Shown one piece after another: positions 2,702 through 57,337 of a DNA stretch of 64,000 nucleotides (its first letter is position 1; each line of letters starts with the position of its first letter). A program made the position numbers and the translations under genes. Source of the DNA: an uncultured Lentisphaerota bacterium (GTDB lineage: Bacteria > Verrucomicrobiota > Kiritimatiellia > CAIQIC01); NCBI GenBank assembly GCA_903912445.1, contig CAIWHP010000110.1, forward strand, positions 15,612 through 79,611, written 5' to 3'. The notes beneath the pieces were generated by a model. It worked only from the letters and a program-made list of their open reading frames with translations, had not been told where the DNA came from and ran no database searches.

Positions 2702-2721
2702 CAGCCCTGAAGGAGACCCCC

Positions 2722-27967: not shown

Positions 27968-28414
27968 ATGCCAAAAACCGTAATTTTCGTCGGATCATCA
28001 CAAGAAGCGAAAACTCAGACGAAGGCTCTGACCACCGCACTGACTTCACCAACAATAGAATTCCTCCCTTGGTGGGAATGCTTTACGGCGGGACATCTTC
28101 TGCTTGATGACCTAGAGGCGGTAAGAACGAAGGCAACAGCAGCAATGTTCATTCTCACGCCTGATATCCCCGCGACCATGCGAGGGGTTTCCGTGGCACT
28201 ACCGAATCAAAACGTATTGTTTGAGGTTGGTTATTTTTTCAATGCGTTTGATCGAGCGCGAATTGCACTCGTTAAATATGGTGCGACAACAATTCCAAAA
28301 GATCTCGATGGATACACTCACATAAAAGGCAGCGATTATTTCAAACCGAGAGTTTCGACGGTAGTGGGAAAAAAGACGCGAGAAGCGTTCGACAAATGGA
28401 TTGTAAGTCTATAA
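27968..28414 (+). CDS. Stand-alone TIR-like nucleotide-binding domain protein (Cap12 / Pycsar-effector TIR-like type)
   Basis: KTVIFVGSSQEA...AAMFILTPDIPA...LPNQNVLFEVGYFFNAFDRARIALVKYG..IPKDLDGYTHI matches the remembered consensus (VFIVHG..., LLTPDD..., RQNVIFELGYFIG.LGR.RV..L, IPSD..G). The ATG at 27968 has AAGGGA 8 nt upstream; an alternative ATG lies at 27938. Low-GC codon usage. Confidence 0.6.
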   Translation: MPKTVIFVGSSQEAKTQTKALTTALTSPTIEFLPWWECFTAGHLLLDDLEAVRTKATAAMFILTPDIPATMRGVSVALPNQNVLFEVGYFFNAFDRARIALVKYGATTIPKDLDGYTHIKGSDYFKPRVSTVVGKKTREAFDKWIVSL

Positions 28415-28516
28415 CGAATCGACTGGCGCAATGGCCCGACCATGCATCAAGCTGGCGGGCCATTTTTCTGCAATCAGATCTTCGAACTGGCGGAACCATG
28501 CGGCAGGTTTGCAAGG

Positions 28517-29215: not shown

Positions 29216-30329
29216 TCGTGTATAGCTCCTTCCAAACTGGGGTCAGATAATTTTCCGCAATCCAGCGTATTACAGGAACGCAGACCGCATCTCCAAAACC
29301 AAACAGAGCCTGGTTGATCGGGACAGTGATGCGAAAATCATCGGCACCCATCAGTCTCGCACACTCCCGGGGAGTGAGAAGCCGTACTGCATAGCGGCCT
29401 TTTCCGGCCGCAAAAAGTATCTGCCGCCCGCTCCCGCCACGTGGTGTTCGCAGACATCCGGCAATGCCATCGGTCCTTAACTCTGCCATGGAGCGAGAAT
29501 ATCGAACCCGGCGAAATACTGTGCCATATGTAATTTTTTTCCCGGAAATCATTTTGTCTGCGATTTTGCGGTGGCGCTCGCTCATTTGATTTAAAAGATA
29601 CTCTGCGCGCTCTTTGCTCCACCAAAACTCTGAACTCGAAGGAAGATCTTCGAGAATGCTACGCAGGTTAATATCTTTCTTCGCAATGCCCGGCAAATTG
29701 CGAATGGACCAGCGAATAAAGGGGTTTGAGAAAATAAAATCAGCTAGCGCAGGCGGGCGACACTGGCTCCCATAAAATGCTGAAGTTTCGCCGATTTTAT
29801 TGGCCTCAGTCTTTTCCTGTTTTCCAATCAGAAAGAGACGCTGCCGACTCTGCGGCACAAACAGACCGGCATTAATAATGAAGGCATCCACCGCGTATCC
29901 AAGATCATTAAGAGCCAAACACGCATCCCGGAAGTCTTGGCCCCCATGAGAGCTCAAAAAGCCTGTAACATTTTCGAGCATGATGAGAGGCGGTTTCTTT
30001 GACCGCATTGACTTCATCGCCTTGATAAAACCCCAAAACGCACCAGAATTTTCGCCCACAAGTCCGCGCCGAGCACCAGCAAGTGATAGGTCATTGCAGG
30101 GAAACGATGCGGTCGCGAGAGCAACAGTTGGAATATCGCTAGATGTGAGCGCGTGTACGTCGCCCAAATGAAAATGAGCAGATTCGGAGCCGAAGTGCCC
30201 TTCGTACATCTTCATTTTCGACTCTTCGATGTCATTCGCCCAGACAACATTCCATCCGGCTTGCTCCAATCCCATTCGCATTAGGCCGATGCCTGCGAAA
30301 AACTCAGCCACTGTTCGCTCATTATTCAT
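29175..30329 (-). CDS. dcm: DNA (cytosine-5)-methyltransferase
   Basis: Motif I EFFAGIGL, motif IV SFPCNDLSLAG, motif VI ENV, motif VIII QSRQRLFLIG, LTPRECARLMG, motif X GDAVCVPV. Confidence 0.95.
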   Translation of the reverse strand: MNNERTVAEFFAGIGLMRMGLEQAGWNVVWANDIEESKMKMYEGHFGSESAHFHLGDVHALTSSDIPTVALATASFPCNDLSLAGARRGLVGENSGAFWGFIKAMKSMRSKKPPLIMLENVTGFLSSHGGQDFRDACLALNDLGYAVDAFIINAGLFVPQSRQRLFLIGKQEKTEANKIGETSAFYGSQCRPPALADFIFSNPFIRWSIRNLPGIAKKDINLRSILEDLPSSSEFWWSKERAEYLLNQMSERHRKIADKMISGKKITYGTVFRRVRYSRSMAELRTDGIAGCLRTPRGGSGRQILFAAGKGRYAVRLLTPRECARLMGADDFRITVPINQALFGFGDAVCVPVIRWIAENYLTPVWKELYTNDDTEEKRTVRAI

Positions 30330-30729
30330 GACTTTTCAGCGCTTTCTCAATGCGAGCAACCATCGAATTTTTGCGAACCGCATCTTCCCAAATCCTGATG
30401 ACATTCCAACCCTTTTCTCTAAGCATGCGTGAGACCAATTTGTCCCGAGCCACATTACGCGCGATCTTTCGCACCCAATAACGGCGGTTGGTGTGTGGCA
30501 TGCGACACTTTCGCGGATGGCCATGCCAGAAGATGCCATCGACAAAAATGGCCAGCCGTGCGGCAGGAAAAACGAAATCTGGTTTCCCGAAGAGCGGGTA
30601 GTTTCTGCGCCAGCCTGTCAGCCTTCTTTCACGGAAGACCCGCATCAGCCGCTGCTCCGTCGAGGCGTTTCCTTGCGATTTGATCCGCGCCATGATCCTC
30701 GACCGCTCTTTTGGGCTGCAAGTGTCCAT
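30322..30729 (-). CDS. vsr: Very short patch repair (T:G mismatch) endonuclease
   Basis: RSRIMARIKSQGNASTEQRL...GWRRNYPLFGKPDFVFPAARLAIFVDGIFWHGHP. 8-nt overlap with dcm. Confidence 0.9.
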   Translation of the reverse strand: MDTCSPKERSRIMARIKSQGNASTEQRLMRVFRERRLTGWRRNYPLFGKPDFVFPAARLAIFVDGIFWHGHPRKCRMPHTNRRYWVRKIARNVARDKLVSRMLREKGWNVIRIWEDAVRKNSMVARIEKALKSHE

Positions 30730-30846: not shown

Positions 30847-30925
30847 TTCCAAGCCCTGGAAAAAACGGCCTTTTCTTTTCCAAGGTCTGGAAAACCCGTC
30901 AGCTTGATTTGGCGGCGGCGAAGCC
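30847..30925. repeat. Right copy of the ~80-bp direct repeat (overlaps the true 3' end of the channel gene)
   Basis: See 27482-27561. Contains GFAAAKSS* and the stop of the gene 30899..32494. Confidence 0.75.
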
Positions 30926-32494
30926 GAGGAGGCGCTTGAAGCGCTGGAGCAGGGTGTCGTGCTTGAGGGCGTTGGCCGAGGCGCCGTTCATGGCCTTGAG
31001 GCGGTCGTAGTTCTGCGCGTTCTGGGCGGCGCGGTCGGCGACGAGGCAGGCGAGCTTCTCCGGGATCTCCGGGCGCAGGCCGAGCAGGCGGGTGAAGGCT
31101 TCCGGCGAGATCTCCAGCAGTTCGGCCTCTTCCGGCACGGTCAGCGTCGCGGCGCGCGGCAGGCCGGTGACGAGGCTCAGCTCGCCGCAGAGCGCGCCGG
31201 TGGGCAGGTCGAACTCGGTCGGCGGCGTCGCGTCCTGGAACTCCACGCGTCCGTGGAGGCGGCCGCGGACGATCACGTAGCAGCTTTCGCCGGCGTCGCC
31301 CTGCCGGAAGACCGTTTCGCCGGCGGTGTAGCGGACGAAGCGCAGCAGGGGCGCGAGCTGCGTCAGGTCGCCCTCGGCCAGCAGCGGCTGGCCGGCGGCA
31401 TCCACAAACAGGTGGGCGACGAACGTGCTGCGCTGCAGTTCGCGGACGCGGCGCGCGGCTTCCGCGGGCGGCGTGGGCTGATGCTGCTGCCCGTTGACGA
31501 CGTGCATGAAATCGCACAGCAGCTTGTCGCTCATCGGGAACGGGATCTCGATGCCGTGGCGCTTGAACTGGTACCAGATGTGGCGGTTGACCTCGCCGCT
31601 GATGGGCGCACGGTTCTGATAGGCGTCGACCCAGATGCGCAGCTCATAGCCGATGCCGAAATCCTTGTAGGCGCACGGGAAGGCCCTGGGCGGAGGGTCG
31701 CGCAGGACGGCCGGCACGGCGGACGCCGCCGCGAGCAGGGCGGCGCTGACGTCGGCGGGCGCGGAGTCATAGCTGGCGTCCACAAAGAGCGAGTGGCGGC
31801 GGACGCTGTCCGGCCAGCTCATGTTGTGGATCGCGGCGGCGGCGATCATGCTGTTGGGCACGATGAGCGTGTGGCCGGCGGTGCTGCGCAGGTGCGTCTC
31901 GCGCCAGTTGGTCTGGAGGATCTCGCCCTCGGCTTCGCCCAGGCTGATCCATTCGCCGGGCCGCAGCGAGCGAGTGATGTGGATGGACATGCCGGCGAGC
32001 AGGTTGCCGAGCACGCCCTGCAGCGCGAAGCCGATGATCGCGGTGACCAGCGCGGTCGAGGTGAGCAACGGGGAGATGTTCACGCCCAAGTAGCGCAGGA
32101 CAACGAGCACGGCGGCGCCGAGCAGCAGGCCGCGGACGAGGTTGCGCAGCAGGCCCGGCAGCGGGAACGCGCGGCCGCGCAGCCGGAAGATCGCCGCGAG
32201 CAGCCCCTCGCAGAACGCGAGCACGGTGACGACCGCCCAGACGGCGAGCCAGATCTTGAGCAGCTGGTCGTTGCCGAGCGCGGAGAGCTGCGGGAGCTTG
32301 TCGGCGATCAAGCGGAGCACGCCGGCGAGCGCGAGCACGACCAGCGGCGTGGCCAGCGGCTCGAGCAGCGCGCCCAGCGGCGAGGCCATTTTCGCCGCGC
32401 GGCGGCGCAGGGGCAGGCCGACGAGCCAGCCGACGACGAGGAGGCCGGCGAGCGCGCCGATCTCGATGATGTGTTCGGTGATGCCCTTATCCAT
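30899..32494 (-). CDS. MscS-family mechanosensitive channel fused to a cyclic-nucleotide-binding domain
   Basis: TM helices, then the MscS beta domain (GNLLAGMSIHITRSLRPGEWISLG...GEILQTNWRETHLRS...LIVPNS). C-terminal cNMP-binding domain (GETVFRQGDAGESCYVIVRGRL...GELSLVTGLPRAATLTV). Internal ATG at 32494 (MDKGITEHIIEIG). Confidence 0.85.
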   Translation of the reverse strand: MDKGITEHIIEIGALAGLLVVGWLVGLPLRRRAAKMASPLGALLEPLATPLVVLALAGVLRLIADKLPQLSALGNDQLLKIWLAVWAVVTVLAFCEGLLAAIFRLRGRAFPLPGLLRNLVRGLLLGAAVLVVLRYLGVNISPLLTSTALVTAIIGFALQGVLGNLLAGMSIHITRSLRPGEWISLGEAEGEILQTNWRETHLRSTAGHTLIVPNSMIAAAAIHNMSWPDSVRRHSLFVDASYDSAPADVSAALLAAASAVPAVLRDPPPRAFPCAYKDFGIGYELRIWVDAYQNRAPISGEVNRHIWYQFKRHGIEIPFPMSDKLLCDFMHVVNGQQHQPTPPAEAARRVRELQRSTFVAHLFVDAAGQPLLAEGDLTQLAPLLRFVRYTAGETVFRQGDAGESCYVIVRGRLHGRVEFQDATPPTEFDLPTGALCGELSLVTGLPRAATLTVPEEAELLEISPEAFTRLLGLRPEIPEKLACLVADRAAQNAQNYDRLKAMNGASANALKHDTLLQRFKRLLGFAAAKSS

Positions 32495-33335
32495 TGAGTG
32501 TGACCTCCATGCCTGCCTGCGCCAGCGCCGCCCCGGACCACAGCCGCCGCGCGGCCCGCGCCACCTCGTCGAGCTGCGCATCGGGGCTCTGCGGCGCGTG
32601 GTGGGTGACCAGCAGCTCGCGCACGCCGGCCTGTTGCGCCACCTCGACATCGTCTTCCCACGCCGAGTGGCCCCAGCCTTTGAACTTGGCAATATTCGCG
32701 CGGCAAAACTGGCCATCCATTACGAGCAACTGTGCGGGCCGCGGCTGCGAGCAAAGCGCAAGGAAGTCGCGCTTCTCGGCCTCGGTGGAGCCGCGCCACT
32801 CCAGGTCCGTCGCGAAGACCACCGCCGCGCCGGTCGCCGGCTCGTCCACGCGATAGGCGTGGCAGCCTTCCGGGTGCTGCACCGCGCACCAGCGGATTTC
32901 CAGACCGTGGTGGCGGCGCACGGCGCCGGCGGCCGCGGGCAGCGTGGTGAGCTTCAGCCGCGCATGCAACTGGTCGAGCTGGATGGGCCAGAACGGCTTC
33001 GCGAGGATGCTACGCACGACCTCGCGCGGCTCGAAGGCCGCGCGGCGCGGCGCGGCGATCTCGACCGTCCAGGCTTTGTTGTAGAGCAAGGCAAACGACG
33101 GCAGGCCCATGATGTGGTCGAGGTGATAGTGCGTCATCAGGAGCAGCACCTCGGCCCCGGCCGCGCCCGCGGCCAGCCGCCCGCCGAGCGCGCGCAGGCC
33201 GGTGCCGGCATCGATGACGAGTTGCTCGCCGCCGCGGCCCTCGATCAGCACGGAAGTCGTCTCCCCGCCGTATTTCAGGAAGTCCGCCTGCGCGACCGGG
33301 CTCGTCCCGCGCACCCCGCCAAAGATGAATTTCAT
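32487..33335 (-). CDS. MBL-fold metallo-hydrolase (possible cyclic-nucleotide phosphodiesterase)
   Basis: LLLMTHYHLDHIMGL (HxHxDH). Overlaps the channel gene by 8 nt and lies 1 nt after the cyclase gene. Confidence 0.8.
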   Translation of the reverse strand: MKFIFGGVRGTSPVAQADFLKYGGETTSVLIEGRGGEQLVIDAGTGLRALGGRLAAGAAGAEVLLLMTHYHLDHIMGLPSFALLYNKAWTVEIAAPRRAAFEPREVVRSILAKPFWPIQLDQLHARLKLTTLPAAAGAVRRHHGLEIRWCAVQHPEGCHAYRVDEPATGAAVVFATDLEWRGSTEAEKRDFLALCSQPRPAQLLVMDGQFCRANIAKFKGWGHSAWEDDVEVAQQAGVRELLVTHHAPQSPDAQLDEVARAARRLWSGAALAQAGMEVTLNG

Positions 33336-33336
33336 C

Positions 33337-35454
33337 TCATTTCTCCGTCAAACTCCAAACGCCGTCCCAGGCGGCGGGCGGCGCGGCCTGCAACGCGCGG
33401 CACTGGGCGGCGTAGGCCCGGGAGGCCGGATCGTCCGGCAGCCGCTCGAACGCGGCCAGCGCCGCGGCGAAGTCGCCTGTGTAAAACTGCGCCAGCGCCT
33501 GCTCGAAGGCGGCGAAGTGCGCGGGGCGCGCCTCGCCGGCCAGACCGGCGAGCTCATAGACGCGCACCGGCGCCTTGCGCCCGACAACGCGCAGCCGGCC
33601 CAGCTCGCGGCCGATGAAGCTCCCGCCGCCCTGCTGCCAGGTGGTCTCGGAGACCATCAGGTAGGTGCCGAACGCCTTGTTCGCACCCTCGAGCCGCGAG
33701 GCGAGGTTCGCCGCGTCGCCGAGGATCGTGTAGTTGAAGCGCTCGCGCGAGCCCATGTTGCCGACGATGACCGCGCCGGTGTTGAGGCCGATGCGCGCCT
33801 TGACCACCGCGCCGGTGCGCTGCTCGAACTCCGGGCGCAGCTCCGCCAGCCGGCGCTGGCAGCGCAGCGCGGCGCGGCAGGCGCGCGCGGCGTGGTCGTC
33901 CTGCCCGAGCGGCGCATTCCAGAACGCGACGATCGCGTCGCCGATGTATTTGTCGAGGTAGCCGCCCTCCGCCTGGATGCACGCGCCCATCTCCGAGAGG
34001 TAGGCGTTGAGCAAGGCGGTCAGCGTCGGCGGATCGAGCCGCTCGGAGAAGCCGGAAAATTTCTCGATGTCGGAGAAGAAAATCGACAGTTCCCGCTTCT
34101 CGCCGCCGAGCTGGAGCTTGCCGGGGTCGGCGATGATCTGCTCGATGACCTCCGGGCCGAGGTAGTATTTGAACGCCGACTTGATGAACGCCTTCTGCCG
34201 GCCTTCCGTGGCGTAGTTGACGACGACCGCGCCGATGAGGGTCAGCGCCACGGCGACCACGCCCGGAGCGACCGGCCACCACCAGCCCGCCAGGTAGCCG
34301 GCGAACCCGAGCCCGATGGCGAGCGCGAGGAACACCACGAACCCCAGCACGGTCTGCCACGAGTTGCGGCTGAAACGCCCCGCGAAGCCGGCACCCAGCG
34401 CGAGCAGCAGGGTGGCGAGGACCGTGGCGACATCCGGCAATTCCCGCAGGAATGTCCGCGACAACAGGTTGTCGAGCGCCGTCGCGTGGACCAAGACGCC
34501 GGGATAGACCTTGCTCATGGGCGTCGGCCGCAGGTCGAGCAAGCCCGGCGCGCTGAAGCCGAAGAGGGCGTAGCAGTCCTTGAGCGCGGCCGGTTCGATG
34601 GTCGGTTTTTTGCCTTCGCGCAGCAACAACTCGGAACGGATGATCTCCCGGACGTTGAAGGTCTGATGCGTGCCCGGCGTGCCGACAAAGCGCAGGATGG
34701 CGCGGCCGCGCTTATCGATCGGGAAACGCTGACCGTCGATGGTCAGCCAGCCCGGCGCAAGGGCGAGCCGGGCCTGCGGTTGGCCGGCCAGATAGGCGGC
34801 CAGGCCGAGCGAGGGCACGACATGGCCCGCGAACTCGCGCACAAGTGTCGCATGCCGATAAACACCGTCGAAAGAGGGCACGCCGTTGACATCGGCCAGC
34901 AGGGTCGCGTTGGTGGCGACGGCGGCGATGGGAAAGCTGGCGCGCGGCGCGCTTTTCAAGGCCTTGGAAAAACGGAGGGCATCCTGGTCCACGGTTTGAA
35001 AAGCCGGCAGCTTGAGCGGTACGGCAGCAGGCCAGTTGGTATACTCACCCTGCTCCTCGCCAAGGAAGGCGGCGCCGACAAAGGGCGCGCCGCGCCGGAT
35101 GGCGTCGCCCAGCGCCTGGTCATCGTTCACGCCCCAGCCGCTCGGCTCCGTAAAGAGCACATCGAACGCGACCGCCTTCGCGCCGGCGCGCTTGCAGAAG
35201 TCGAGCACGACACCATACGCCTCGCGCGGCCAAGGCCAGGTCCAGCTGTTCTCGTTCTTGCCCCAGTCCAAGCTGGGTTGATCGAGCAGGATCACCTTGA
35301 TCTGCCCGGTGGCAGGCGAGGGTTTGGCGAGGGCTCGGACGCGTGCCAGCCAGGCGGAATTTTCCAGCCAGTGCAACTGGCCACCCAACGACAGCGCCAG
35401 CGCGACAAGCGCGCCGCCGAGGCCGAGCAACACAGCATGGAGGAGCTTTTTCAA
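33337..35454 (-). CDS. CHASE2-sensor class III adenylate/guanylate cyclase
   Basis: N-terminal signal/TM plus an extracytoplasmic CHASE2-like region and 3-4 TM helices. Cyclase core: LSIFFSDIEKFSGFSE...YLDKYIGDAIVAFWNAP...RIGLNTGAVIVGNMGS..RFNYTILGDAANLASRLEG. Confidence 0.9.
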   Translation of the reverse strand: MKKLLHAVLLGLGGALVALALSLGGQLHWLENSAWLARVRALAKPSPATGQIKVILLDQPSLDWGKNENSWTWPWPREAYGVVLDFCKRAGAKAVAFDVLFTEPSGWGVNDDQALGDAIRRGAPFVGAAFLGEEQGEYTNWPAAVPLKLPAFQTVDQDALRFSKALKSAPRASFPIAAVATNATLLADVNGVPSFDGVYRHATLVREFAGHVVPSLGLAAYLAGQPQARLALAPGWLTIDGQRFPIDKRGRAILRFVGTPGTHQTFNVREIIRSELLLREGKKPTIEPAALKDCYALFGFSAPGLLDLRPTPMSKVYPGVLVHATALDNLLSRTFLRELPDVATVLATLLLALGAGFAGRFSRNSWQTVLGFVVFLALAIGLGFAGYLAGWWWPVAPGVVAVALTLIGAVVVNYATEGRQKAFIKSAFKYYLGPEVIEQIIADPGKLQLGGEKRELSIFFSDIEKFSGFSERLDPPTLTALLNAYLSEMGACIQAEGGYLDKYIGDAIVAFWNAPLGQDDHAARACRAALRCQRRLAELRPEFEQRTGAVVKARIGLNTGAVIVGNMGSRERFNYTILGDAANLASRLEGANKAFGTYLMVSETTWQQGGGSFIGRELGRLRVVGRKAPVRVYELAGLAGEARPAHFAAFEQALAQFYTGDFAAALAAFERLPDDPASRAYAAQCRALQAAPPAAWDGVWSLTEK

Positions 35455-48046: not shown

Positions 48047-48426
48047 TCAGTTCAGCGTGCCTGCGACCGAGAGCGGGGGAGCCCAGACTCCATGCCGCGC
48101 AAGACCGCGCGCCCACTCCACTGACAGGCGTGCTCCGGTCCAAAAAAAAGAGGCGCTCCCCCTCATGGGAGAGCGCCTCGCAGCCCCGCCTACGCAGCAG
48201 GCTGGCTGGACGTTCCTGGAAACCAGCTTGTTCATTTCGAACATGCTGACCATTTTCCGTTGAAGACAACCAGCAGAGCTTCACCCGCAGTGATCCGGAT
48301 CTTCGCCTTCAGATCCTGCAGCTTGTTCTTCTTGATATAGCCCAGAGCTTGGAGTGAGTTCCGTGCGGGCAACGGCGTCGCGCCGACCACCTCAGCGAGC
48401 TTCTCGTTGGGTTGGCCCAGCCTCAT
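48047..48426 (-). pseudogene. SWIB/MDM2-domain protein gene disrupted by frameshift(s)
   Basis: ORF1 reads ...KLAEVVGATPLP...YIKKNKLQD...VVFNGK. The rest of the domain (VSMFEMNKLVSRNV) is in another frame, offset by one base at an A4 run. ORF2 then reads through a terminator hairpin. Confidence 0.55.
48142..48179 (-). terminator. Rho-independent terminator downstream of the SWIB gene
   Basis: 12-bp GC stem with one bulge, gaggcgctcccc / gggagagcgcctc, followed on the minus strand by T8. Confidence 0.75.
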
Positions 48427-48646
48427 GAAGGCTGGTTTGGGCGCGCGTTTAGGGCTGCCCCAAAGCCCGGAAGCGGTCGGAGGTAAAAAGCTGGCTAGCG
48501 CGACCCGCGCAATTTATACTGCTAAACAGCAAGTTGACCAGCGACAGCCCATGCTGCAGTGGCCCCGTCAGGCCGGTGCAGGCTGGTGGCGGACCGAGGT
48601 CTTTAGCGGAGTCCCTAGCTGAAATGTGCGGATAAAGGTCGAAAAA

Positions 48647-49177
48647 ATGATCGCTCAAGTGGATGGGCGTTACATGAACTGGAACGTATTACATGTCCGG
48701 CCGCGATGTGAGAAGAAAATGGCGGAATACTGCACGCTGCACCAGATTCCGACCTATCTGCCCATGAGGCAGGAGACGAAGGTCTACCAGCGGCGGAAGG
48801 TGATCGTCAGCAAACCGTTGTTCCCCGGCTATGTTTTCGCCGATTTCCCCCCGACCGAGCGGTTGCTCGTCCAGGAGAGCCGCAAACTCGTGCGCCGCAT
48901 CGAAGTACCGGATCAGGTCAGTTTTGCAAACGAGCTTGAGCAAGTGCGCAAGGCGCTGCTGGTGGATGCCACCCTCGGGGCTACGCCCGAGCTTGTGACG
49001 GGCCAGCCGGTGCGCATCATTTCGGGGCCGTTCCAAGGGTTGGAAGGCGTTGTGTCGTCCGTGCAGGGCATGACTCGGGTGGTACTCAACGTGGACATGA
49101 TCGGCCAGAGCGTGCGGTTGGAGGCCGAGCCCCATATGCTGGAGCCGCGCGAACCGCCCGCGCCCCGCCCAAACTGA
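48647..49177 (+). CDS. NusG paralog (RfaH/UpxY/LoaP-like specialised antiterminator)
   Basis: NGN: WNVLHVRPRCEKKMAEY...IPTYLPM......RRKVIVSKPLFPGYVFA. KOW: GQPVRIISGPFQGLEGVV. Alternative starts at 48626 (GTG) and 48674 (ATG). Confidence 0.75.
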   Translation: MIAQVDGRYMNWNVLHVRPRCEKKMAEYCTLHQIPTYLPMRQETKVYQRRKVIVSKPLFPGYVFADFPPTERLLVQESRKLVRRIEVPDQVSFANELEQVRKALLVDATLGATPELVTGQPVRIISGPFQGLEGVVSSVQGMTRVVLNVDMIGQSVRLEAEPHMLEPREPPAPRPN

Positions 49178-49263
49178 GGCCCGGCAGCGTCCAAGGAACT
49201 CCGGCGCTCGTGTGGTGAGTTTTTCGCGCCAGGCAGGGTCAGCAGACCTGTCCGTTCTTTTCG

Positions 49264-49659
49264 CTACACCTGTGCGGCCCGCTCACCGTGCGGCGGCTCG
49301 TAGGTCTTCAACCCCGCCAGCAAGTCTGGAATTTTGCCGATGTCCCGGGCTTTATTGAGAAAAGCGTGGGCACCGGTCGCGCGGGCGCGACGCTCGTACT
49401 GCGCGTGGGGATAGTTGGTCAGCACCACCACCACTGTGGGACTCCGCTCCTGGTGCATCACCTTGAGCACATCCAAGCCATTCCCGTCAGGCAGTTGCAG
49501 ATCCAAGAGCAACACATCGGGCTTGAATTTCCTCAGGGCCAGAAACCCCGCCGCCACGGATTCCGCCTGGCCGACGACTTCAACGCCGGCGATGGCCTCC
49601 AGCAAGGTCACCAAGCGGATGCGGATGAGTGCCGAATCATCAATAATAAGAACTTTCAT
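49264..49659 (-). CDS. Stand-alone response-regulator receiver (CheY-like)
   Basis: MKVLIIDDSALIR...PDVLLLDLQLPDGNG...VVVLTNYPH...GAHAFLNK. No output domain. ATGA overlap with the kinase gene. Confidence 0.9.
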   Translation of the reverse strand: MKVLIIDDSALIRIRLVTLLEAIAGVEVVGQAESVAAGFLALRKFKPDVLLLDLQLPDGNGLDVLKVMHQERSPTVVVVLTNYPHAQYERRARATGAHAFLNKARDIGKIPDLLAGLKTYEPPHGERAAQV

Positions 49660-50948
49660 TCACCCCCCAAGGGGGACGAATCCGAGCCCGTGATGCTCAC
49701 CGGTCCGGAAGGCGACGAACTGGTGCCGGAGGCGGTGGTGGGGCCCTCAAAGCCGGGGGAGTTTTCCCCGTGCACAGAGGTCACCACCCGCTGGACCAAG
49801 GGCATACGCACTTGCACGGCAGTGCCGTGGCCGGGTTTACTCTGGATGTTTACAGTCCCTTGGAAACCGATGGCGCGCTCGCGCATGCTGAGCAACCCGA
49901 GCGCTTCGGACACCGGGCAGGCTTCCGGCGTGAAGCCCCGGCCATTGTCCTGCACATCCATCTCCAGTTCCCCATCGGTGATCACCAGCTTGATCATCAC
50001 CTGCGTGGCCTGGGCGTGCCGGACGACGTTGGTCAACGCCTCCTGCAAGATCCGGAACAGGGCTAATGCGTCGTCCCGCTCCAGCACCAGGTCTTCAGCG
50101 GGTATCGACAGGGCACACTTCAAACCGGTGCGTCGCTCGCAATCCTCCACCTGCCACTCGATGGCCGCCAGCAGACCCAGATCGTCCAGCATGCCCGGCC
50201 GCAGCGAGGCGCAGATCGCCTGCGTCATCTCGGTCAGCTGTTCGACCAACGGCATCATGGCAACAATTTTATCCCGCATCTCCGCCCCCAAACCGGGTTG
50301 GACCGGCTGCAACTTGCGGTCCAGCCAACTCAGATCGATCTGCAGGGCGGTCAGTTTCTGCCCGAATTCATCGTGCAACTCGCGGGCGAGGGCTTTGCGC
50401 TCCTCTTCGCGTACGACCTGCAGATGGGCCGCCAAGGCGTGCAAGTTTACCGCGGCCTGATTCAACTCCGCCGTCCGCACCCTGACCCGACGCTCCAGAT
50501 CTTCCTGGGTGCGTTCGCGTTCCTTTATTAGCAAGATGCGTTCCATATCCCGCGCCTTGGCCGCGGCCGCCCGACTGATGGTCTCCAGGACCGCCTGCGG
50601 TTCGAAGGGCTTCACCAGATAGTCGAAGATGCGCAGGCTGATCGACTGCCGTGCCGAAGCGAAGTTGGGCTCGCCCGTCATCAGGATCACCCGCACATCG
50701 GGCCGCCAGTCATGGATATGCCGCGCCACATCCAACCCGTTGCCGGTCCCCAGCAGGATATCGAGCAGTGCCACATCCAGCGGATACCGCTCCACGCAGC
50801 GTATCGCCTCATCGGTATCGGCCGCTTCGATCACCTCATGTCCGGCGTCTTTGAGCAGAGCGCCGAGGATGGTCCGAATACTCTTTTCGTCATCCAGCAA
50901 CAAGATTACAGCCATAAGATCACCATAGCCAGTAACGTGGCTGACCAC
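49656..50948 (-). CDS. Hybrid sensor kinase: N-terminal receiver + HisKA_3 (NarX/DegS-type) + HATPase_c
   Basis: REC: AVILLLDDEKSIR...LDVALLDILLGTGNG...VILMTG...DYLVKPF. H-box: LARELHDEFGQKLTAL. ATPase: LQEALTNVVRHAQA, DNGRGF, GLLSMRERA, GHGTAV. Start may be the ATG at 50915. Confidence 0.9.
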   Translation of the reverse strand: MVSHVTGYGDLMAVILLLDDEKSIRTILGALLKDAGHEVIEAADTDEAIRCVERYPLDVALLDILLGTGNGLDVARHIHDWRPDVRVILMTGEPNFASARQSISLRIFDYLVKPFEPQAVLETISRAAAAKARDMERILLIKERERTQEDLERRVRVRTAELNQAAVNLHALAAHLQVVREEERKALARELHDEFGQKLTALQIDLSWLDRKLQPVQPGLGAEMRDKIVAMMPLVEQLTEMTQAICASLRPGMLDDLGLLAAIEWQVEDCERRTGLKCALSIPAEDLVLERDDALALFRILQEALTNVVRHAQATQVMIKLVITDGELEMDVQDNGRGFTPEACPVSEALGLLSMRERAIGFQGTVNIQSKPGHGTAVQVRMPLVQRVVTSVHGENSPGFEGPTTASGTSSSPSGPVSITGSDSSPLGGE

Positions 50949-51055
50949 CCCGTCCCAAGGAGTGTACCCCTTTCCCGTGTAATTGATATATGTTCATTTC
51001 GGCACGCCCACGGTCACAGGGAGACCTTGCGCCGGAGTTCCACAGCAGCACAAGC

Positions 51056-53269
51056 TCACGAGGCCACCTGCGTCACCGTCCCGTGTCCCCCCGCCATCAA
51101 CGCCCGCAACAGGTCGGAGATCTTGGCGAAATCCCTGGCCTTGTTGAGAAACGCATACGCGCCCGCGGCTTGGGCCCGCTTTTCATACTGGGGGTGCGGG
51201 TAGCTGGTGAAGACGATGACGGCCGTCGGGAGATGCTCGCTTTGGATCAGGCGGAGGACATTCAGTCCATTGCCGTCCGGGAGCCGCAGGTCCAACGTCA
51301 TCGCGTCGGGCTTGAGCTGCCGCAGGGCGCTGATCGCTTGCTCCGCCGTTTCCGCCTGGCCGACAATTTCGATGCCCTCCAGTTGCTGCAGTTGGGTCAC
51401 CAGGCGTTCGCGGATCAAGGCCGAATCATCCACGATCAGCACCCGCGCGCCTTTCTTGCCCGGCTGCCGCCGCTGGTTCACCAACAGGGTCGGTTCGTTG
51501 AACAGCGCCGGATCAGCGCCGGTACCGTCCGGGGGCTGTCTCCCCGCCAGCTGTGCTTGCAGGCTGTCGATCTTGGCCCACAGTTCGGCCTGGTTGCCGG
51601 CGCGGGTCATGGTCCCGAGTTCCGACAACCAAGCGGCCACTATATCGTGCGGGATCGGATGTTGCTGCGCCACCGACAGTCCGGCCTTGCGCTCGGTCAT
51701 GGGCGCCTGCTGCACATCGTACTCCCCCGCCCCGCCCCACAGATCGGCGGGCACATTCGGCGCCGTCACAACCCGGGCCAGTGTCTGGGCGCACAGCGCC
51801 ATCAACCGGGTGCGCTCCTCGTCCGGGAGGCTGTGGATGGAAAAAAGTATGACCCCGATGTCGTGTTGCTTGACCAGGGCCGGGATGTGGTCGCACTTCC
51901 CGAGCACCTTCACGCCGGCGATGCGCGTATTCGTTTTATTGAGATCATCATCAACAAAACCCGCGACGCGGAACGCCTTGCTGACCCGGCCGCTCCGCAG
52001 CCATAAGGCCATGACCTGACCGCACTCGCCGGCGCCCACGATCAGCACCCGTTCCTGCCCCAGACATGCCACGTCACGCCCCCTGATCCAGCGGCGGGCC
52101 AGGGTCTGGACGAGCCGGTTGCGATAGCGCACCGCCACAAAGCCGCCAAAGGCGATGGCTGCCGCCGTGAAGATCAACGGCGGCGGCAGCAACGGCTGCG
52201 GACCAAACCAGAAACCATTGGCCATCACCGCCGTCGCGGTCGTCACCAACAGGGCCGGGATCAGATCGAGCGCTTCCGTAAAACTGGCCCGCGACCAGGC
52301 CGTTGAATTCACCCCGATCATGACGCCCATCACGCTGTTCAACAAGGCCGCCCCGACGGCAATCCACACGGCGTGCCACAATCCCACATTTAGGACCACA
52401 AACGAGCGCCAGACCAGGCCCGTCACCGCCATGGAGAGCAGCATGACGACCGTATCGATCATGAACCAACTGGCGAAGCGCCGCATGAACAATTCAAAGG
52501 GCCCCAGGAAGAGGTTTTCTTCGCCCGGATTGGCCCGCAGACGGATCGGGAGGACCAGCAGGGTCCAGAAGAGCGTGTCCACGTCCATCAGCAGCGAGTG
52601 ATGCCGCACGTAGAGCTGGTCCAGCCGCAACTTGCTGGGCATGATCGAACCCATGTACAAGTCCATCAGCTTGCCCGACGTGAACAGTTTCTCTTCATCC
52701 CGGAAGAGCACGGAAGCCGGGCTGGTGATACCGGGGCGTACCGACAGGATCTCTTGCCGGACTTCCGGCGGCATGGCCTCGGCCAATTGCGCATCCTCGG
52801 GGCGCGGTCCCACAAAGCTCATGTCGCCGATCAACACATTCCACAACTGGGGCAGCTCGTTGAGTTTGGTGTCGCGCAGGCGGCGTCCAAGCGGCGTCAT
52901 GCGCTGGTCGTCATGCGCGGTGACGCGCGGCCCCGCATAACTTTCCGGACTTTCATACATGGTCCGGAACTTCAGGATGCCGAACACCTTCCCGCCCTTG
53001 CCCATGCGCGGCCCCCGGTAGAACACCGGACCGGGTGAATCCCGCTTGATCCGGATGGCGATGAGCAGGAAAAACGGCGCCAGCAGGACGAGCAACACCA
53101 CCGCGAGACAGACATCCAGCCCCCGCTTGACCGGGGTACCAATCCACGCATAGGGCCGCGGGCCTACCCGGGCCGCCGGGGCATCATGCTCCGATACCCG
53201 CATTTCCTGGTTCGTGAAAACCTTCAGGATGCGTGACCGCTGCTTGTGACTGGCAAATATGGTCGACAT
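51056..53269 (-). CDS. Polyprenyl-phosphate sugar-phosphate transferase (Bac_transf/PglC-like) + polytopic TM/Rossmann-like module + C-terminal receiver domain
   Basis: PGT core: KRGLDVCLAVVLLVLLAPFFLLIAIRIKRDSPGPVFYRGPRMGKGGKVFGILKFRTM...DDQRMTPLGRRLRDTKLNELPQLWNVLIGDMSFVGPRP. Then about 5 TM helices and VLIVGAGECGQ. C-terminus: VLIVDDSALIR...DAMTLDLRLPDGNG...FTSYPH...GAYAFLNK. The ATG at 53269 was chosen because the longer ORF overlaps the upstream gene. Confidence 0.85.
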   Translation of the reverse strand: MSTIFASHKQRSRILKVFTNQEMRVSEHDAPAARVGPRPYAWIGTPVKRGLDVCLAVVLLVLLAPFFLLIAIRIKRDSPGPVFYRGPRMGKGGKVFGILKFRTMYESPESYAGPRVTAHDDQRMTPLGRRLRDTKLNELPQLWNVLIGDMSFVGPRPEDAQLAEAMPPEVRQEILSVRPGITSPASVLFRDEEKLFTSGKLMDLYMGSIMPSKLRLDQLYVRHHSLLMDVDTLFWTLLVLPIRLRANPGEENLFLGPFELFMRRFASWFMIDTVVMLLSMAVTGLVWRSFVVLNVGLWHAVWIAVGAALLNSVMGVMIGVNSTAWSRASFTEALDLIPALLVTTATAVMANGFWFGPQPLLPPPLIFTAAAIAFGGFVAVRYRNRLVQTLARRWIRGRDVACLGQERVLIVGAGECGQVMALWLRSGRVSKAFRVAGFVDDDLNKTNTRIAGVKVLGKCDHIPALVKQHDIGVILFSIHSLPDEERTRLMALCAQTLARVVTAPNVPADLWGGAGEYDVQQAPMTERKAGLSVAQQHPIPHDIVAAWLSELGTMTRAGNQAELWAKIDSLQAQLAGRQPPDGTGADPALFNEPTLLVNQRRQPGKKGARVLIVDDSALIRERLVTQLQQLEGIEIVGQAETAEQAISALRQLKPDAMTLDLRLPDGNGLNVLRLIQSEHLPTAVIVFTSYPHPQYEKRAQAAGAYAFLNKARDFAKISDLLRALMAGGHGTVTQVAS

Positions 53270-53291
53270 GCTTAGCTCTCCCGTGCACGGT

Positions 53292-54467
53292 TCACGTGGA
53301 CGGCCCTTCTGCTTTCTGACCAGCTCCGCACGCCTCCAAGGCCCGACCCAGCACACGGCAGACCCGCTGGACTTCGTCCGGCGACATCGACGGGAAAAAC
53401 GGCAGGGTGAGTTCGCGGGTGGCGATATCTTCGGTCTGTTCCAAGGATACCCGCTCAGCGGCCGGAACGGCGCTGAACTGATGAGCGGGCGGATAATGGA
53501 TGCTGGACTGGATGCCTTCGTCCCGGAGCGCCTCCATGATGGCCTGGCGCCGCACGCCCCGCGGGAGGATGACCGGCATGATATGAAAGCCCACCCCCTC
53601 CACACCCCGGGCGGAGGCATCCGCGAAGGGCACCTGGAGCGGCAACCCCTGCAGACCGTCCACGTACTGCCGCCGCACCGCGCCACGGCGCGCCAGAAAC
53701 CCGTCCAGCTTGCCGAGTTGCGCCAGGGCCAGGCTGGCCCGGATCTCGTCGATCCTGAAATTCCAGCCCGTTTCGACGCAGTCATAGGACCAAGCGTGCC
53801 CTTCGTGCCGGTCGAGCGTCATGGCCGTCATCCCGTGGGAACGCAGCAGGCGCAGCTTGCGGGCGATGCTTGCATGATTGGTGACCACCAGCCCGCCCTC
53901 GCCGCAGGTCATGTTCTTGTTGGAGAAGAAACTGAAACAGCCGCAGGCGCCGAACGTGCCCAGCACCCGGCCCTCAAGCTGCGAAAAGAGCGCGTGTGCA
54001 CAGTCCTCAATGACAGCCACATGGTGCTTCGTGGCCAAGGCCATCAAGGCGCACATGTCCACCGGGAAGCCAGCATAGTGGACGGCCACAATCGCCTTGG
54101 TGCGCGGTGATATTTTCCGCTCCACATCCCGGACGTCCAAGGTCAGATCATGCGCGCCCACGATGTCACAGAACACGACCTTGGCCCCGCAGTAACGCGC
54201 CGCGTTGGCCGAGGCCACGAAGGTCAGGGCTGGCACGATCACTTCATCGCCCGGCCCCACCCCGTTGGCGAGCAGGGCCAGATGCAGCGCCGCCGTGCAG
54301 TTGGTCACGGCGATGGCCTCGCCCGCGCCGGTGCGCCGGCGGAAAGTATCCTCGAGTTCCGCGGTGATGGGCCCCATCGTCAGCCACTGCTGGCGCAACG
54401 GCCGCTGCACGGCCTCAAGTTCGTCCGGACCGAACTCGGGCTTGAAGAGTGGAATGGTCCAGTTCAT
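53292..54467 (-). CDS. DegT/DnrJ/EryC1/StrS-family sugar aminotransferase
   Basis: AIAVTNCTAALHLAL, VIVPALTFVASANA, AVHYAGFPVDM, FSFFSNKNMTCGEGG (PLP Lys). Confidence 0.9.
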   Translation of the reverse strand: MNWTIPLFKPEFGPDELEAVQRPLRQQWLTMGPITAELEDTFRRRTGAGEAIAVTNCTAALHLALLANGVGPGDEVIVPALTFVASANAARYCGAKVVFCDIVGAHDLTLDVRDVERKISPRTKAIVAVHYAGFPVDMCALMALATKHHVAVIEDCAHALFSQLEGRVLGTFGACGCFSFFSNKNMTCGEGGLVVTNHASIARKLRLLRSHGMTAMTLDRHEGHAWSYDCVETGWNFRIDEIRASLALAQLGKLDGFLARRGAVRRQYVDGLQGLPLQVPFADASARGVEGVGFHIMPVILPRGVRRQAIMEALRDEGIQSSIHYPPAHQFSAVPAAERVSLEQTEDIATRELTLPFFPSMSPDEVQRVCRVLGRALEACGAGQKAEGPST

Positions 54468-55241
54468 CTAGGCGAATCTCATGGGGTTGTTCTGGACGAT
54501 CGTCTGCGCCTTGGCATAGTCATCCGGGCGGCCGATATCCAGCCAGAAGCCGTCATGGCAATACGTCCCGACCTTCTCCCCGGAGTGGAGCAGCGTCTGC
54601 ACCAAATCGGGGAAATCGAGGTGTTGTCCGGGTGCAATGTGCTGGAGCACGCGGGCCTCGTACACATAGATCCCCATGCTGACGGTATAGGCGTGCACCG
54701 GTTTCTCGCGATAAGCCGTGACCGTGCCCTCGCCATCGGTGTCGATGATGCCAAGGTCGATCCGCTCCTCGCGTTTATAGGTCCCGATGGTCAAGGCGGC
54801 GCCGGAACGCTTGTGGGCGGCGAGCAGCAGGACCAGATCCACATCCGTGAGCAGGTCGCCATTCATCGCCAGGAATGTACCGGTCAAGCCCGGTACGCAG
54901 GCGAGGGAGCCGGCGGTGCCCGTCGGCGCCACCTCCTCAATGAAGTCGATTTTCAATCTCCGGTTCAATTCGGCATGCTGGCCGATGTAGGCCCGGATCA
55001 AGCTGGACAGGTGGCCCAACGCCAAGGTCACCCGGCAGCAGCCGGCATTGGCCAGCTGCGAAAGCAGGATATCCAGGATCGGCCGGTCGCCCAGCGGCAT
55101 CAGCGGCTTGGGAAAACAGACCGTGAACGGTTGCAACCTGACGCCCCGGCCCCCGGCCAGGATCACCGCCGGTATCAGGGACATGTCGCACGCGATGGAG
55201 GCGCGCGCTACTGGCGGAGTTGTTGTCAGCTGCATGATCAT
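54468..55241 (-). CDS. Sugar-1-phosphate nucleotidyltransferase
   Basis: AVILAGGRGVRLQPFTVCFPKPLMPLGDRPILD. Start may be the internal ATG at 55184. Confidence 0.85.
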   Translation of the reverse strand: MIMQLTTTPPVARASIACDMSLIPAVILAGGRGVRLQPFTVCFPKPLMPLGDRPILDILLSQLANAGCCRVTLALGHLSSLIRAYIGQHAELNRRLKIDFIEEVAPTGTAGSLACVPGLTGTFLAMNGDLLTDVDLVLLLAAHKRSGAALTIGTYKREERIDLGIIDTDGEGTVTAYREKPVHAYTVSMGIYVYEARVLQHIAPGQHLDFPDLVQTLLHSGEKVGTYCHDGFWLDIGRPDDYAKAQTIVQNNPMRFA

Positions 55242-55265: not shown

Positions 55266-56261
55266 CTACACCGCATAGCGCGCTGCGTCGTAAAGTTCGG
55301 GGTGCTTCGCGATAAATTCCGCGGTCGCCCGGATACCATCTTCGAGCGCCGTCAAGGGTTCCCAGCCCAAGAGCCGCTGCGCCTTGGCGGGGTCGGCCTG
55401 CAAATGGACGACCTCGCTGTTCGCGGGCCGCACCCGGGCCGGATCTTCGCGGATCACCGCTTCCCGGCCCGTAACCTTCAGGCAGAGTTGCGCCAGTTCG
55501 CCGACACTCACGGCGCTGTTGGTGCCCAGATGGATGACTTGGCCTTCGATCCCTGGGGTTTCCAGCGCGAGGCGGAACCCGCGCGCCGTATCCTTCACAA
55601 ACACGAGATCCCGCTTCGGCGCCAGGCTCCCCAGGTGCAATTCCTGCGCACCCACGAGCAGTTGCGCCAAGATGGCCGGCAGCACAGCGCGCGCCGACTG
55701 GCGCGGACCGTAGGTGTTGAATGGACGCAGGGTGACCAGCGGAAGCCCGAAGGCTCTGAAATAACTTTCCCCGAGCTTGTCGCCGCCGATCTTGGAGGCG
55801 CTATAGGGCGACTGCGCGGACAGCGGATGCTCCTCGTCAATCGGCACCCGTTGGGCGCTGCCGTAGACTTCGCTGGTGGAGGTAATGACCACGCGCGCCG
55901 TGTCATTGGCCCGCGCCGCTTCCAAGATGTTGAGCACCCCCACGACGTTGGTCTCGATGTAAGACTGGGGGGCCGCGTAGGAGTAAGGGATGCCGATCAG
56001 GGCGGCGAGATGGAGGACCGCATCGCACCCTTGGACGAGCGACCGCATGAACACGCCGTCCCGGACGTCGCCGAAGACGATTTCCAGGCCGGCCTTGAGC
56101 CGGTCATCCAGCCACGCAAGGTGGCCCGTGCGCGACCCGCCGTTGTAGTGCACCAAGGCTCGCACCTCATAGCCCGCGGCCAGCAGCTCCTCGACCACAT
56201 GGCTGCCGATGAAGCCGCCGGCTCCAGTGACGAGGACCTTGTTCGTGACTTCAGGTTTCAT
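55266..56261 (-). CDS. NAD-dependent sugar epimerase/dehydratase (extended SDR)
   Basis: VLVTGAGGFIGSHVVEELL (GxxGxxG). YSASK catalytic motif. Confidence 0.9.
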   Translation of the reverse strand: MKPEVTNKVLVTGAGGFIGSHVVEELLAAGYEVRALVHYNGGSRTGHLAWLDDRLKAGLEIVFGDVRDGVFMRSLVQGCDAVLHLAALIGIPYSYAAPQSYIETNVVGVLNILEAARANDTARVVITSTSEVYGSAQRVPIDEEHPLSAQSPYSASKIGGDKLGESYFRAFGLPLVTLRPFNTYGPRQSARAVLPAILAQLLVGAQELHLGSLAPKRDLVFVKDTARGFRLALETPGIEGQVIHLGTNSAVSVGELAQLCLKVTGREAVIREDPARVRPANSEVVHLQADPAKAQRLLGWEPLTALEDGIRATAEFIAKHPELYDAARYAV

Positions 56262-56389: not shown

Positions 56390-57337
56390 CTACACGACCA
56401 AGAGGCTGGCCCGTTGCAGGGCGAGGGCTTCCGGCCACGACTGCTCCGCCAAGGGCTTGCGGCCTTCCAGCCAGAGCCGGACCAGCCCCTCGGCCTTGGC
56501 TAGCGCCGGGCGATCCGGGAAGTGCTCGTGGAGGCGCAGGAGGATGCGATGACTCGTCGCATTGAAGAGCGGTGCGACCCACGAATGGAAAGCGACACGC
56601 TGCCGCACCGGACGGGCGATATAGCCCATGCGGAACTTATATTCATCGACGCTCCCCGGTGCGTCGAGCGAGTGCAGGCCATAGAAGACCTCGGTGATCA
56701 ACGGGCGCGACAGGGCCGCCTGCGTCACAACGAACGACAGTGCGTTGTTGACGCCAAGCCGCATGCAAGCCGTGCGGCTTTGCTGATAGAGTATGCAGAA
56801 ATATTCGTCACAGGTGACGGCGATCAGGGAGCCGCACAGCAGTCCACTCGCGGCGTCGCGCGCGCCCCAACACTCCACGCCCGGCAGGCCTTCCGTGCTC
56901 AGGCAAAGTTGTTCCCACCAAGGTCTGCTCTCCGCGCGGATGCGTCCTTGCCGCTCCAGCGTTTCAGCTCGAACCGCCCAGCCCTCGGCCGCGAGATGCG
57001 CTGGTGTGATCGGCTCGACCCGAAAAGCACTGAGCCCTTTGCGCACGTCGTAGCGCGCCTTGCCGGACAGTTGTTCCAGGCTATAGGTTTTGTTGGCACA
57101 CACGACATGGTAACTGATCGCTCCCTCGCACGCTTCCGTAGATACTGAGAAGCGCACGCCGATCGCACGAAGCTCCCGAAGCACTGCGTGAAGTTCCCGC
57201 GGATCGAGGGCGAGCATGCGGTGGTAGGGAAAGGCTTGAAAAATGCGCGGGGCCAATTCCACCCAATAGCTGCCTGCGACTTGTTGCACACGCCGCCCTT
57301 GGCGCTGCAGCCACTCCGCCATGACCTCTGCATTCAT
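56390..57337 (-). CDS. FemAB/GNAT-like acyl- or aminoacyl-transferase (tentative)
   Basis: SGKARYDVRKGLSAFRVE and later NNALSFVV...EYKFRMGY resemble FemAB-type/BioF2-like acetyltransferases. Weak call. Confidence 0.35.
   Translation of the reverse strand: MNAEVMAEWLQRQGRRVQQVAGSYWVELAPRIFQAFPYHRMLALDPRELHAVLRELRAIGVRFSVSTEACEGAISYHVVCANKTYSLEQLSGKARYDVRKGLSAFRVEPITPAHLAAEGWAVRAETLERQGRIRAESRPWWEQLCLSTEGLPGVECWGARDAASGLLCGSLIAVTCDEYFCILYQQSRTACMRLGVNNALSFVVTQAALSRPLITEVFYGLHSLDAPGSVDEYKFRMGYIARPVRQRVAFHSWVAPLFNATSHRILLRLHEHFPDRPALAKAEGLVRLWLEGRKPLAEQSWPEALALQRASLLVV

Follow-up and report, generated by a model that had tools for sequence, protein, structure and literature searches.

A receiver domain fused to a PglC-like phosphoglycosyl transferase fold in PVC-group bacteria, with a likely role in phospho-control of glycan initiation

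We analyzed a stretch of 64,000 nucleotides (the window) of contig CAIWHP010000110.1 from an uncultured Lentisphaerota bacterium, and concentrated on one gene that joins a glycan-priming enzyme fold to a signaling domain. The encoded inner-membrane protein carries, in this order, a PglC-like monotopic phosphoglycosyl transferase (monoPGT) fold, four transmembrane (TM) helices, a Rossmann-like domain of unknown function (DUF) of the CoA_binding_3 family, a helical hairpin, a linker and a NarL-type receiver. The whole is explained best, in a judgment that leans only somewhat to this side, by a fused protein in which a kinase drives, and the receiver gates, the first lipid-linked step of glycan synthesis; direct phospho-control of glycan initiation is likely. 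The features of the gene are the following:

51056..53269, minus strand: whole gene, 737 aa (open reading frame with start codon, Pfam, homologs P0001-P0008, AlphaFold2 (AF2) model)
53039..53137, minus strand: re-entrant membrane helix, aa 45-77 (KRGLDVCLAVVLLVLLAPFFLLIAIRIKRD), with a break at Pro65 (hydropathy, PglC alignment, AF2)
52553..53128, minus strand: PglC-like monotopic PGT-fold domain (Bac_transf), aa 48-239 (Pfam, E 4e-53; PDB sequence matches to WbaP and PglC; Foldseek)
52856..52861, minus strand: Asn137-Glu138 (AAC GAG) at the position of the Asp-Glu dyad (PglC/WbaP alignment, codons read directly)
52076..52504, minus strand: four TM helices, aa 256-398 (AF2 helices 256-288, 297-318, 336-354 and 363-398; hydropathy)
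51737..52060, minus strand: Rossmann-like nucleotide-binding DUF (CoA_binding_3), aa 404-511, with GAGECG at 412-417 (Pfam PF13727, PDB entry 3NKL)
51548..51649, minus strand: helical hairpin, aa 541-574 (AF2 helices 541-557 and 560-574, pLDDT about 88)
51080..51448, minus strand: NarL-type receiver, aa 608-730, with the predicted phospho-acceptor D660 at 51290-51292 (Pfam, CheY alignment, PDB)

The gene runs on the minus strand from an ATG at 53269 to a stop codon at 51056, and its frame is unbroken across 737 codons. An earlier note on this DNA, made from the letters alone, had given the same coordinates, and all peptides quoted in it were found in the protein. Pfam assigns Bac_transf (PF02397) to aa 48-239 (E 4e-53, 179.9 bits versus a cut-off of 27), CoA_binding_3 (PF13727) to aa 373-496 (E 5e-7) and Response_reg (PF00072) to aa 610-720 (E 2e-21). 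The protein thus has extra domains, CoA_binding_3 and Response_reg, fused C-terminal to its Bac_transf core, which is the arrangement of a bifunctional monoPGT. A longer reading frame of 909 aa, starting at 53785, was rejected as spurious: it overlaps the DegT aminotransferase gene (53292-54467) out of frame, and the homologs begin at the equivalent of 53269. The AF2 model was built as a monomer from an alignment of 59 sequences (A1), and has a mean pLDDT of 73.

The three domains are found in one chain in 8 protein clusters with 59-93% identity, drawn from four independent data sources (ENA, NCBI, JGI and Logan assemblies). All receiver-fused forms fall in one cluster at 50% identity, restricted to metagenome-assembled genomes (MAGs) of the Planctomycetes-Verrucomicrobia-Chlamydiae (PVC) group. 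The gene is colinear and syntenic in locus L001 (a Lentisphaerae MAG, 89% identity) and in L005/L006 (a Verrucomicrobia MAG, 59% identity). The order common to the two MAGs is a LegB-like 4,6-dehydratase, a sugar-1-phosphate nucleotidyltransferase, a DegT aminotransferase, the fusion protein, a REC-HisKA_3-HATPase_c kinase and a single-domain receiver. The idea that a frameshift or a mis-assembly created an artificial fusion, raised by the earlier note and given next to no probability here, is refuted by this shared architecture and synteny, together with the uninterrupted frame; the fusion is genuine.

The receiver has the residues expected of a working phospho-acceptor domain. D614, D615, D660, T688 and K710 align with D12, D13, D57, T87 and K109 of CheY, and F707 supplies the aromatic residue; the conserved Asp/Lys pocket of this domain, which the earlier note had called a canonical receiver, is complete in this alignment. 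The best PDB matches, both by sequence and by Foldseek, are receivers of the NarL family (spr1814, DesR, VraR and LiaR). The fused receiver is 55% identical to the single-domain response regulator encoded nearby, versus about 25% to the receiver of the neighboring kinase. A database search with the receiver only returned almost solely receivers that stand alone, about 130 aa in length and with identities of up to 79%; it listed no fused proteins and is uninformative on the number of fused architectures. Judging by these identities to the neighbor and to the stand-alone proteins, the fused receiver has its origin in a family of response regulators that consist of a receiver alone. The contexts of three such stand-alone receivers (L010, L011 and L013) are other signaling loci or contig ends, and are uninformative for a linkage to glycan genes.

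Two signaling genes follow the fusion gene:

49656..50948, minus strand: soluble hybrid kinase, REC-HisKA_3-HATPase_c, H-box ELHDEFGQ (Pfam; NCBIfam NarQ/UhpB/LiaS-type kinase core)
49264..49659, minus strand: response regulator of 131 aa with a single domain, paralogous to the fused receiver (Pfam; its start overlaps the kinase stop codon)

The adjacent kinase of which the earlier note spoke is thus a HisKA_3-type gene directly downstream of the fusion gene. It has an intact H-box and lacks a TM segment, and its position is kept in L001, L005/L006, L002, L003, L004 and L012. HisKA_3 kinases pair with NarL-type receivers, and the kinase is the presumed phosphodonor of the fused receiver. Given a genuine fusion, an intact receiver and an adjacent HisKA_3 kinase, the reading that needs the fewest assumptions is still that initiation is controlled after translation. 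The earlier note had proposed such control of a priming enzyme; its regulatory part remains likely, backed by these three observations and by a precedent in which the receiver acts in trans (PMC12802240), whereas its premise of a working transferase is not shown.

In the mechanism that we propose, the soluble REC-HisKA_3 kinase would be switched on, via its own receiver, by a separate upstream kinase, and would then phosphorylate D660. The phosphorylated receiver would shift the oligomeric (dimeric) or allosteric state of the 4TM-DUF module, and this change would gate the lipid-linked step that opens the assembly of a glycan whose first sugar would be a bacillosamine-type 4-amino-4,6-dideoxyhexose. 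The free paralogous receiver might serve as a competing phosphate sink or as a second output. The domains, the receiver pocket, the synteny, the Asn-for-Asp replacement and the family relations were observed directly; the phosphotransfer partner, the direction of the regulation, the sugar and the catalysis by the Asn-Glu site are parts of this scheme that we infer.

The N-terminal domain belongs to the monoPGT superfamily by profile, fold, re-entrant helix and the other residues of the active site, but lacks the Asp-Glu dyad. AF2 models this domain with confidence, and Foldseek against the PDB matches it to PglC (8G1N/8E37, TM-score 0.74-0.77, E 4e-11) and also to WbaP. The re-entrant segment is the most hydrophobic of the protein and is modeled as a helix (aa 41-77, pLDDT >90), with a break at A64-P65 that aligns with Ser23-Pro24 of PglC; P65 is invariant in A1. 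Also invariant in A1 are K100 (the equivalent of Lys59), D121, R132 (the equivalent of Arg88), E138 and the G154-P-R-P157 motif, as well as D159 (codon 52793-52795, in GPRPED), right after the PRP motif. D120, the first Asp of the DDxR motif, is present but is not among the invariant residues. In the F-x-Q-x-R motif the canonical Gln is changed, the target having YRGPR in the alignment with PglC.

The nucleophile Asp93 of PglC (8E37, with WbaP also aligned) corresponds to Asn137 (codon AAC, 52859-52861). This is not an oddity of one sequence: N137 and E138 are invariant in A1, and Asn-Glu (N-E) was found in 120/120 best homologs. In a wider sample of 150 representatives at 50% clustering, there were 67 N-E, 52 D-E and 1 N-D proteins. 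In a neighbor-joining tree of the PGT domain, the N-E proteins form two groups, a large clade that contains the target and a small separate group, and the sole D-E member of the large clade (P0231) is nested within it. Every full-length N-E protein of this sample has a C-terminal 4TM-DUF module, and Glu-Asp after the PRP motif occurs in 56/67 N-E proteins versus 21/52 D-E proteins.

The Asp-Glu dyad has been described as present in all members of the monoPGT superfamily (PMC10519829), and the carboxylate of its Asp forms the covalent phosphoglycosyl-enzyme intermediate in monoPGTs (PMC10541605, PMC10859629). The conservation of Asn-Glu challenges the former statement. The catalytic core, which the earlier note had called complete, is not so, since N137-E138 replaces the dyad; and the name of priming phosphoglycosyl transferase goes beyond what is shown for a protein that has Asn in place of the covalent-intermediate Asp, as does its whole clade. 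Our literature search found no description of monoPGT pseudoenzymes or Asn variants, and no paper that describes the Asn-Glu clade, PglF-receiver fusions or the shared kinase cassette.

The main rival explanation follows from this replacement. It holds that the Asn-Glu domain is dead, and that the protein is a gatekeeper: a signal-controlled scaffold, a binder of undecaprenyl phosphate (Und-P) or of nucleotide-diphosphate (NDP)-sugar, or a regulator of another initiating enzyme. We consider this unlikely, albeit to be taken seriously. The invariance of Asn at the nucleophile position across the clade is what would be expected of such a protein if the dyad is universal and its Asp is the covalent nucleophile (PMC10519829, PMC10541605); the altered Gln of F-x-Q-x-R points the same way, and the repeated fusion of receivers, degenerate GGDEF domains and PilZ to relatives, described below, fits a regulatory protein. 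However, K100, D121, R132, E138 and R156 are invariant under strong purifying selection, and the Asn itself is fixed and not drifting, which is unusual for a dead site. The nesting of P0231 within the N-E clade suggests that the N-E and D-E states are functionally interchangeable. In the complete-looking Wzy/Wzz clusters of L008 and L009, the receiver-less relatives have no other PGT-like gene within 10 kb, and none was seen besides the target in the window. A phmmer search of the PGT domain against all six-frame reading frames of the window matched only the target, and Pfam scans of 46 window reading frames (several at 10-22 kb were left out) found no Glycos_transf_4 and no further Bac_transf. 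The fixation of Asn, the strong selection on the rest of the site and the status as sole PGT-like genes were counted in favor of activity.

A broader conclusion is possible, although we hold it to be rather doubtful: the N-E clade would be a large unrecognized branch of the monoPGT fold that does without the covalent aspartyl-phosphosugar mechanism, N-E having arisen at least two times and always with a C-terminal 4TM-DUF of the PglF type. Its members would be either priming enzymes with a non-covalent mechanism (possibly with a non-UDP donor provided by the linked nucleotidyltransferase) or signal-gated pseudoenzymes. If this is true, the repeated capture of receivers, degenerate GGDEF domains and PilZ would mean that initiation is targeted directly by two-component and cyclic di-GMP (c-di-GMP) signaling in several phyla.

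Several points weigh against receiver-gated initiation by the fused protein and should be considered together. The established mechanism requires the Asp carboxylate, so that a PGT domain with Asn137 should be inactive by that mechanism. In the AF2 model, the receiver (608-736, placed after a disordered linker) is of low confidence, with a pLDDT of 40-70. No sensor kinase adjoins the cassette in the window, unlike in L002, L004 and L012. Finally, the polysaccharide cluster runs past the window end at 64000, and a second, canonical PGT farther upstream is possible.

Upstream of the fusion gene are three genes for a sugar precursor:

53292-54467, minus strand: DegT aminotransferase (Pfam; NCBIfam PseC/LegC-like)
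54468-55241, minus strand: sugar-1-phosphate nucleotidyltransferase (Pfam)
55266-56261, minus strand: LegB-like NDP-hexose 4,6-dehydratase (Pfam; NCBIfam LegB TIGR04180, 403 bits)

This trio recurs beside relatives in L005, L008 and L009, and members of the N-E clade almost always have a nucleotidyltransferase, a DegT aminotransferase and a LegB-like dehydratase of the soluble kind next to them; the relative in L007 has neighbors limited to a UDP-sugar dehydrogenase and a short-chain dehydrogenase/reductase. The adjoining dehydratase, nucleotidyltransferase and aminotransferase suggest that the first sugar is a 4-amino-4,6-dideoxyhexose of the bacillosamine type, and the linked nucleotidyltransferase gives a hint that its donor is, possibly, carried on a non-UDP nucleotide. 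A promoter and terminator scan of 48400-54600 gave no signal beyond the shuffled expectation. Two further genes of this region deserve mention. A 315-aa reading frame in the glycan cluster (56390-57337, minus strand) has a coding-like GC content at third codon positions and no Pfam or NCBIfam match, and a reading frame of the same length occupies the equivalent position in L001 (5933-6880). A gene for an antiterminator of the UpxY/RfaH family (48626-49177, plus strand) runs toward the 3' end of the polysaccharide/two-component operon, in convergent orientation, whereas UpxY genes usually lead.

The cassette could also be read in the opposite direction. The membrane module would then sense uridine monophosphate, NDP-sugar or Und-P load, by way of the DUF or the active site, and control the phosphorylation of its own receiver, thus draining or feeding a phosphorelay. 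Such a reverse flow of the signal, which we regard as improbable, is compatible with the DUF of WbaP, which binds uridine nucleotides and mediates feedback (PMC10942596), with the receivers as sole sensory domains of the window cassette, and with the paralogous free receiver in the same kinase neighborhood. On the other hand, the cassette has no DNA-binding or other output domain to be fed, a PAS or dCache sensor kinase provides the input in related loci, and the experimental precedent goes from the receiver to the enzyme (PMC12802240).

Kinase-driven gating of the enzyme is also supported by what is seen when the same cassette is attached to another enzyme. In L003, L004 and L012, which are loci of PVC-group MAGs, the order is a small PGT, a receiver-fused PglF-like dehydratase, a REC-HisKA_3 kinase, a receiver and a PAS/dCache sensor kinase; in L003, the receiver after the kinase is not single-domain, but is fused to the next kinase. 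The upstream small PGT has the canonical D-E dyad in L003 and L004. The PglF-like dehydratases (4TM, CoA_binding_3 and Polysacc_synt_2; L003:5727-8573, L004:8048-10852 and L012:3999-6461) carry C-terminal receivers, two in L003 and L004, and one in L012 plus a separate receiver reading frame of 79 aa. The last PglF-fused receiver in L003 and L004 is 63-71% identical to the target receiver. The receiver thus travels, with its kinase, with whichever enzyme has the 4TM-DUF module, which points to this shared module as the regulated element.

Other signaling domains are found on relatives with the same scaffold. A GGDEF domain without the GG[DE]EF motif (degenerate) is present at the C-terminus of P0207, P0208, P0211, P0212, P0231 and P0239, and a PilZ domain at the N-terminus of P0218; P0212 additionally has an N-terminal glycosyltransferase family 2 domain. 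This suggests a c-di-GMP-type control of the same PGT-4TM-DUF scaffold, and with receivers, degenerate GGDEF and PilZ all on one scaffold, the latter is a recurrent docking point for signaling domains.

The scaffold itself is widespread. The search returned 1536 representatives with the PGT-4TM-DUF layout at E<=1e-30. Proteins of ~560 aa number in the hundreds and belong to Chloroflexota as well as to other phyla; among the relatives of 800-930 aa, many extend into a Polysacc_synt_2 dehydratase, i.e., are fusions of the PglC-PglF type. After the catalytic domain, AF2 gives four TM helices, in addition to the re-entrant helix 45-77, where about five had been counted in the earlier note. Residues 511-540 are disordered in the monomer model and are followed by the helical hairpin; no beta-hairpin is seen after the DUF in the secondary structure of this model. 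The helical hairpin is kept at the C-terminus of receiver-less relatives (the consensus tail in A1, P0011, P0024, P0043 and P0058), and is missing from P0005 and P0008.

The earlier note had called the domain order permuted, which implied a rearrangement of WbaP-type enzymes, but PGT-4TM-DUF is a common order that grades into PGT-4TM-DUF-Polysacc_synt_2 proteins. We give little credence to the idea that the protein arose when a large PGT of the WbaP type was circularly permuted. It is true that TIGR03025 (EPS_sugtrans) matches the target in two stretches, that large PGTs, in which 4TM-DUF precedes the PGT, also match the module weakly (20-27 bits), and that the N-terminal modules of PglF and WbaP are structural homologs (PMC10942596). 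However, the dehydratase-bearing relatives mostly have higher scores for the 4TM-DUF (24.6-84 bits, eight printed). The DUF matches 3NKL, the N-terminal domain of a WbpM-like enzyme, by sequence (E 7e-9) and by fold (TM-score 0.76, rmsd 2.2), whereas a comparison of its sequence to the PDB matched no WbaP DUF at E<=10. The four-helix region (aa 256-398) has its homolog in the N-terminal portion of the PglF-like proteins of L003 and L004, and the DUF matches these proteins at E 2e-11. Because many relatives of 800-930 aa still have the dehydratase domain, the simplest history, as far as sequence comparison can tell, is that the domain order is that of a PglC-PglF-type fusion minus a lost dehydratase domain. 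In this history, the fusion would have dropped its dehydratase, with a soluble LegB-like dehydratase encoded next door instead, and a lineage of the PVC group would have acquired the receiver afterwards.

The window contains a few other features outside this locus. A low-GC island at 28000-30400 (GC 0.50 versus about 0.63) has a gene for a GIY-YIG nuclease-domain protein that overlaps a gene for a C-5 cytosine DNA methylase (28517-29215 and 29175-30329, minus strand), and probably represents a restriction-modification or Vsr-like module gained by horizontal transfer. A CHASE2-adenylate/guanylate cyclase (33337-35454, minus strand) has as its neighbor an MscS-type channel that carries a cyclic-nucleotide-binding domain at its C-terminus (30899-32716, minus strand); cyclase and channel may form a pair of enzyme and effector. 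A sulfatase and two arylsulfotransferase (ASST)-like genes in tandem are located at 791-4362 and 7265-8677 (plus strand), and would be in keeping with the PVC-group (Lentisphaerota-like) origin to which L001, the closest genome match, points. A reading frame of 563 aa (23334-25025, minus strand), not adjacent to the cassette, has HisKA near its C-terminus and no HATPase_c match at E<=1e-4; a kinase that is atypical, or has been truncated, is a possible reading.

We know of no fused monoPGT-receiver protein that has been characterized. Receiver or other signaling domains placed on the enzyme that they control are familiar from the enzyme-fused response regulators CheB and PleD/WspR, and from the c-di-GMP-gated polysaccharide synthases BcsA-PilZ and PelD; these act on soluble enzymes or processive synthases, not on lipid-carrier priming. 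As compared to BcsA-PilZ and PelD, relatives of the target bear PilZ or a degenerate GGDEF in the place of the receiver. Glycan pathways draw on the same limited supply of undecaprenyl phosphate and nucleotide sugars, which the cell has to ration among them. Action of a receiver on a PGT has, to our knowledge, been shown by experiment in a single case, published in 2025 for myxobacteria.

In that system, the phosphorylated single-domain receiver EpsW of Myxococcus xanthus directly activates the PGT EpsZ, probably by promoting or stabilizing a dimer mediated by the DUF, in a PGT whose DUF lacks the beta-hairpin of WbaP (PMC12802240). The likeness to the proposed scheme lies in the post-translational action of a receiver on the monotopic PGT with which a Wzx/Wzy-type pathway begins, with phosphorylation required in the case of EpsW. 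EpsZ also has a 4TM bundle and a DUF without the WbaP beta-hairpin, and no such hairpin is seen after the DUF in the monomer model of the target. EpsW differs in that it is a protein by itself and is supplied by a chemosensory (Dif) kinase, whereas the target receiver is fused in cis and its kinase is a soluble REC-HisKA_3 protein; EpsZ differs in its order (4TM-DUF-PGT, versus PGT-4TM-DUF) and in its Asp-Glu dyad (versus Asn-Glu).

WbaP of S. enterica (PDB 8T53) shares with the target the PGT fold with a re-entrant helix, the four-helix bundle and the CoA_binding_3 DUF. Its DUF dimerizes and binds uridine nucleotides, and has been regarded as a regulatory, nucleotide-sensing domain, the role of the 4TM-DUF module being described as puzzling (PMC10942596). 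With the PGT at 48-239, the 4TM at 256-398 and the DUF at 404-511, the target has the reverse of the order that defines WbaP-type large monoPGTs, and it further differs by the helical hairpin instead of a beta-hairpin (in the model), by Asn for Asp and by the extra receiver.

The N-terminal domain is PglC-like by fold, and the 4TM-DUF is PglF/WbpM-like, with the relatives of 800-930 aa representing complete PGT-4TM-DUF-dehydratase fusions; the likeness to the Campylobacter pgl system extends to PglF/PglE, as the genes that flank the target are predicted to make a 4-amino-4,6-dideoxyhexose. The target differs from PglC-PglF fusions by the absence of the dehydratase domain (the soluble LegB-like enzyme being next door), the linked nucleotidyltransferase, Asn-Glu and the added receiver. 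A class with the same architecture of a monoPGT core and a receiver has already been catalogued in a sequence-similarity network by O'Toole et al. 2021, where, as far as the citation in PMC12802240 conveys, it is known from the database only. Set beside these systems, the locus is a natural cis-fusion (Rosetta-stone) form, in the PVC group and with the kinase adjoining, and provides independent genomic support for the generality of receiver-to-PGT control. With one enzyme, one kinase and one free receiver, it is also a self-contained set for reconstitution in vitro.

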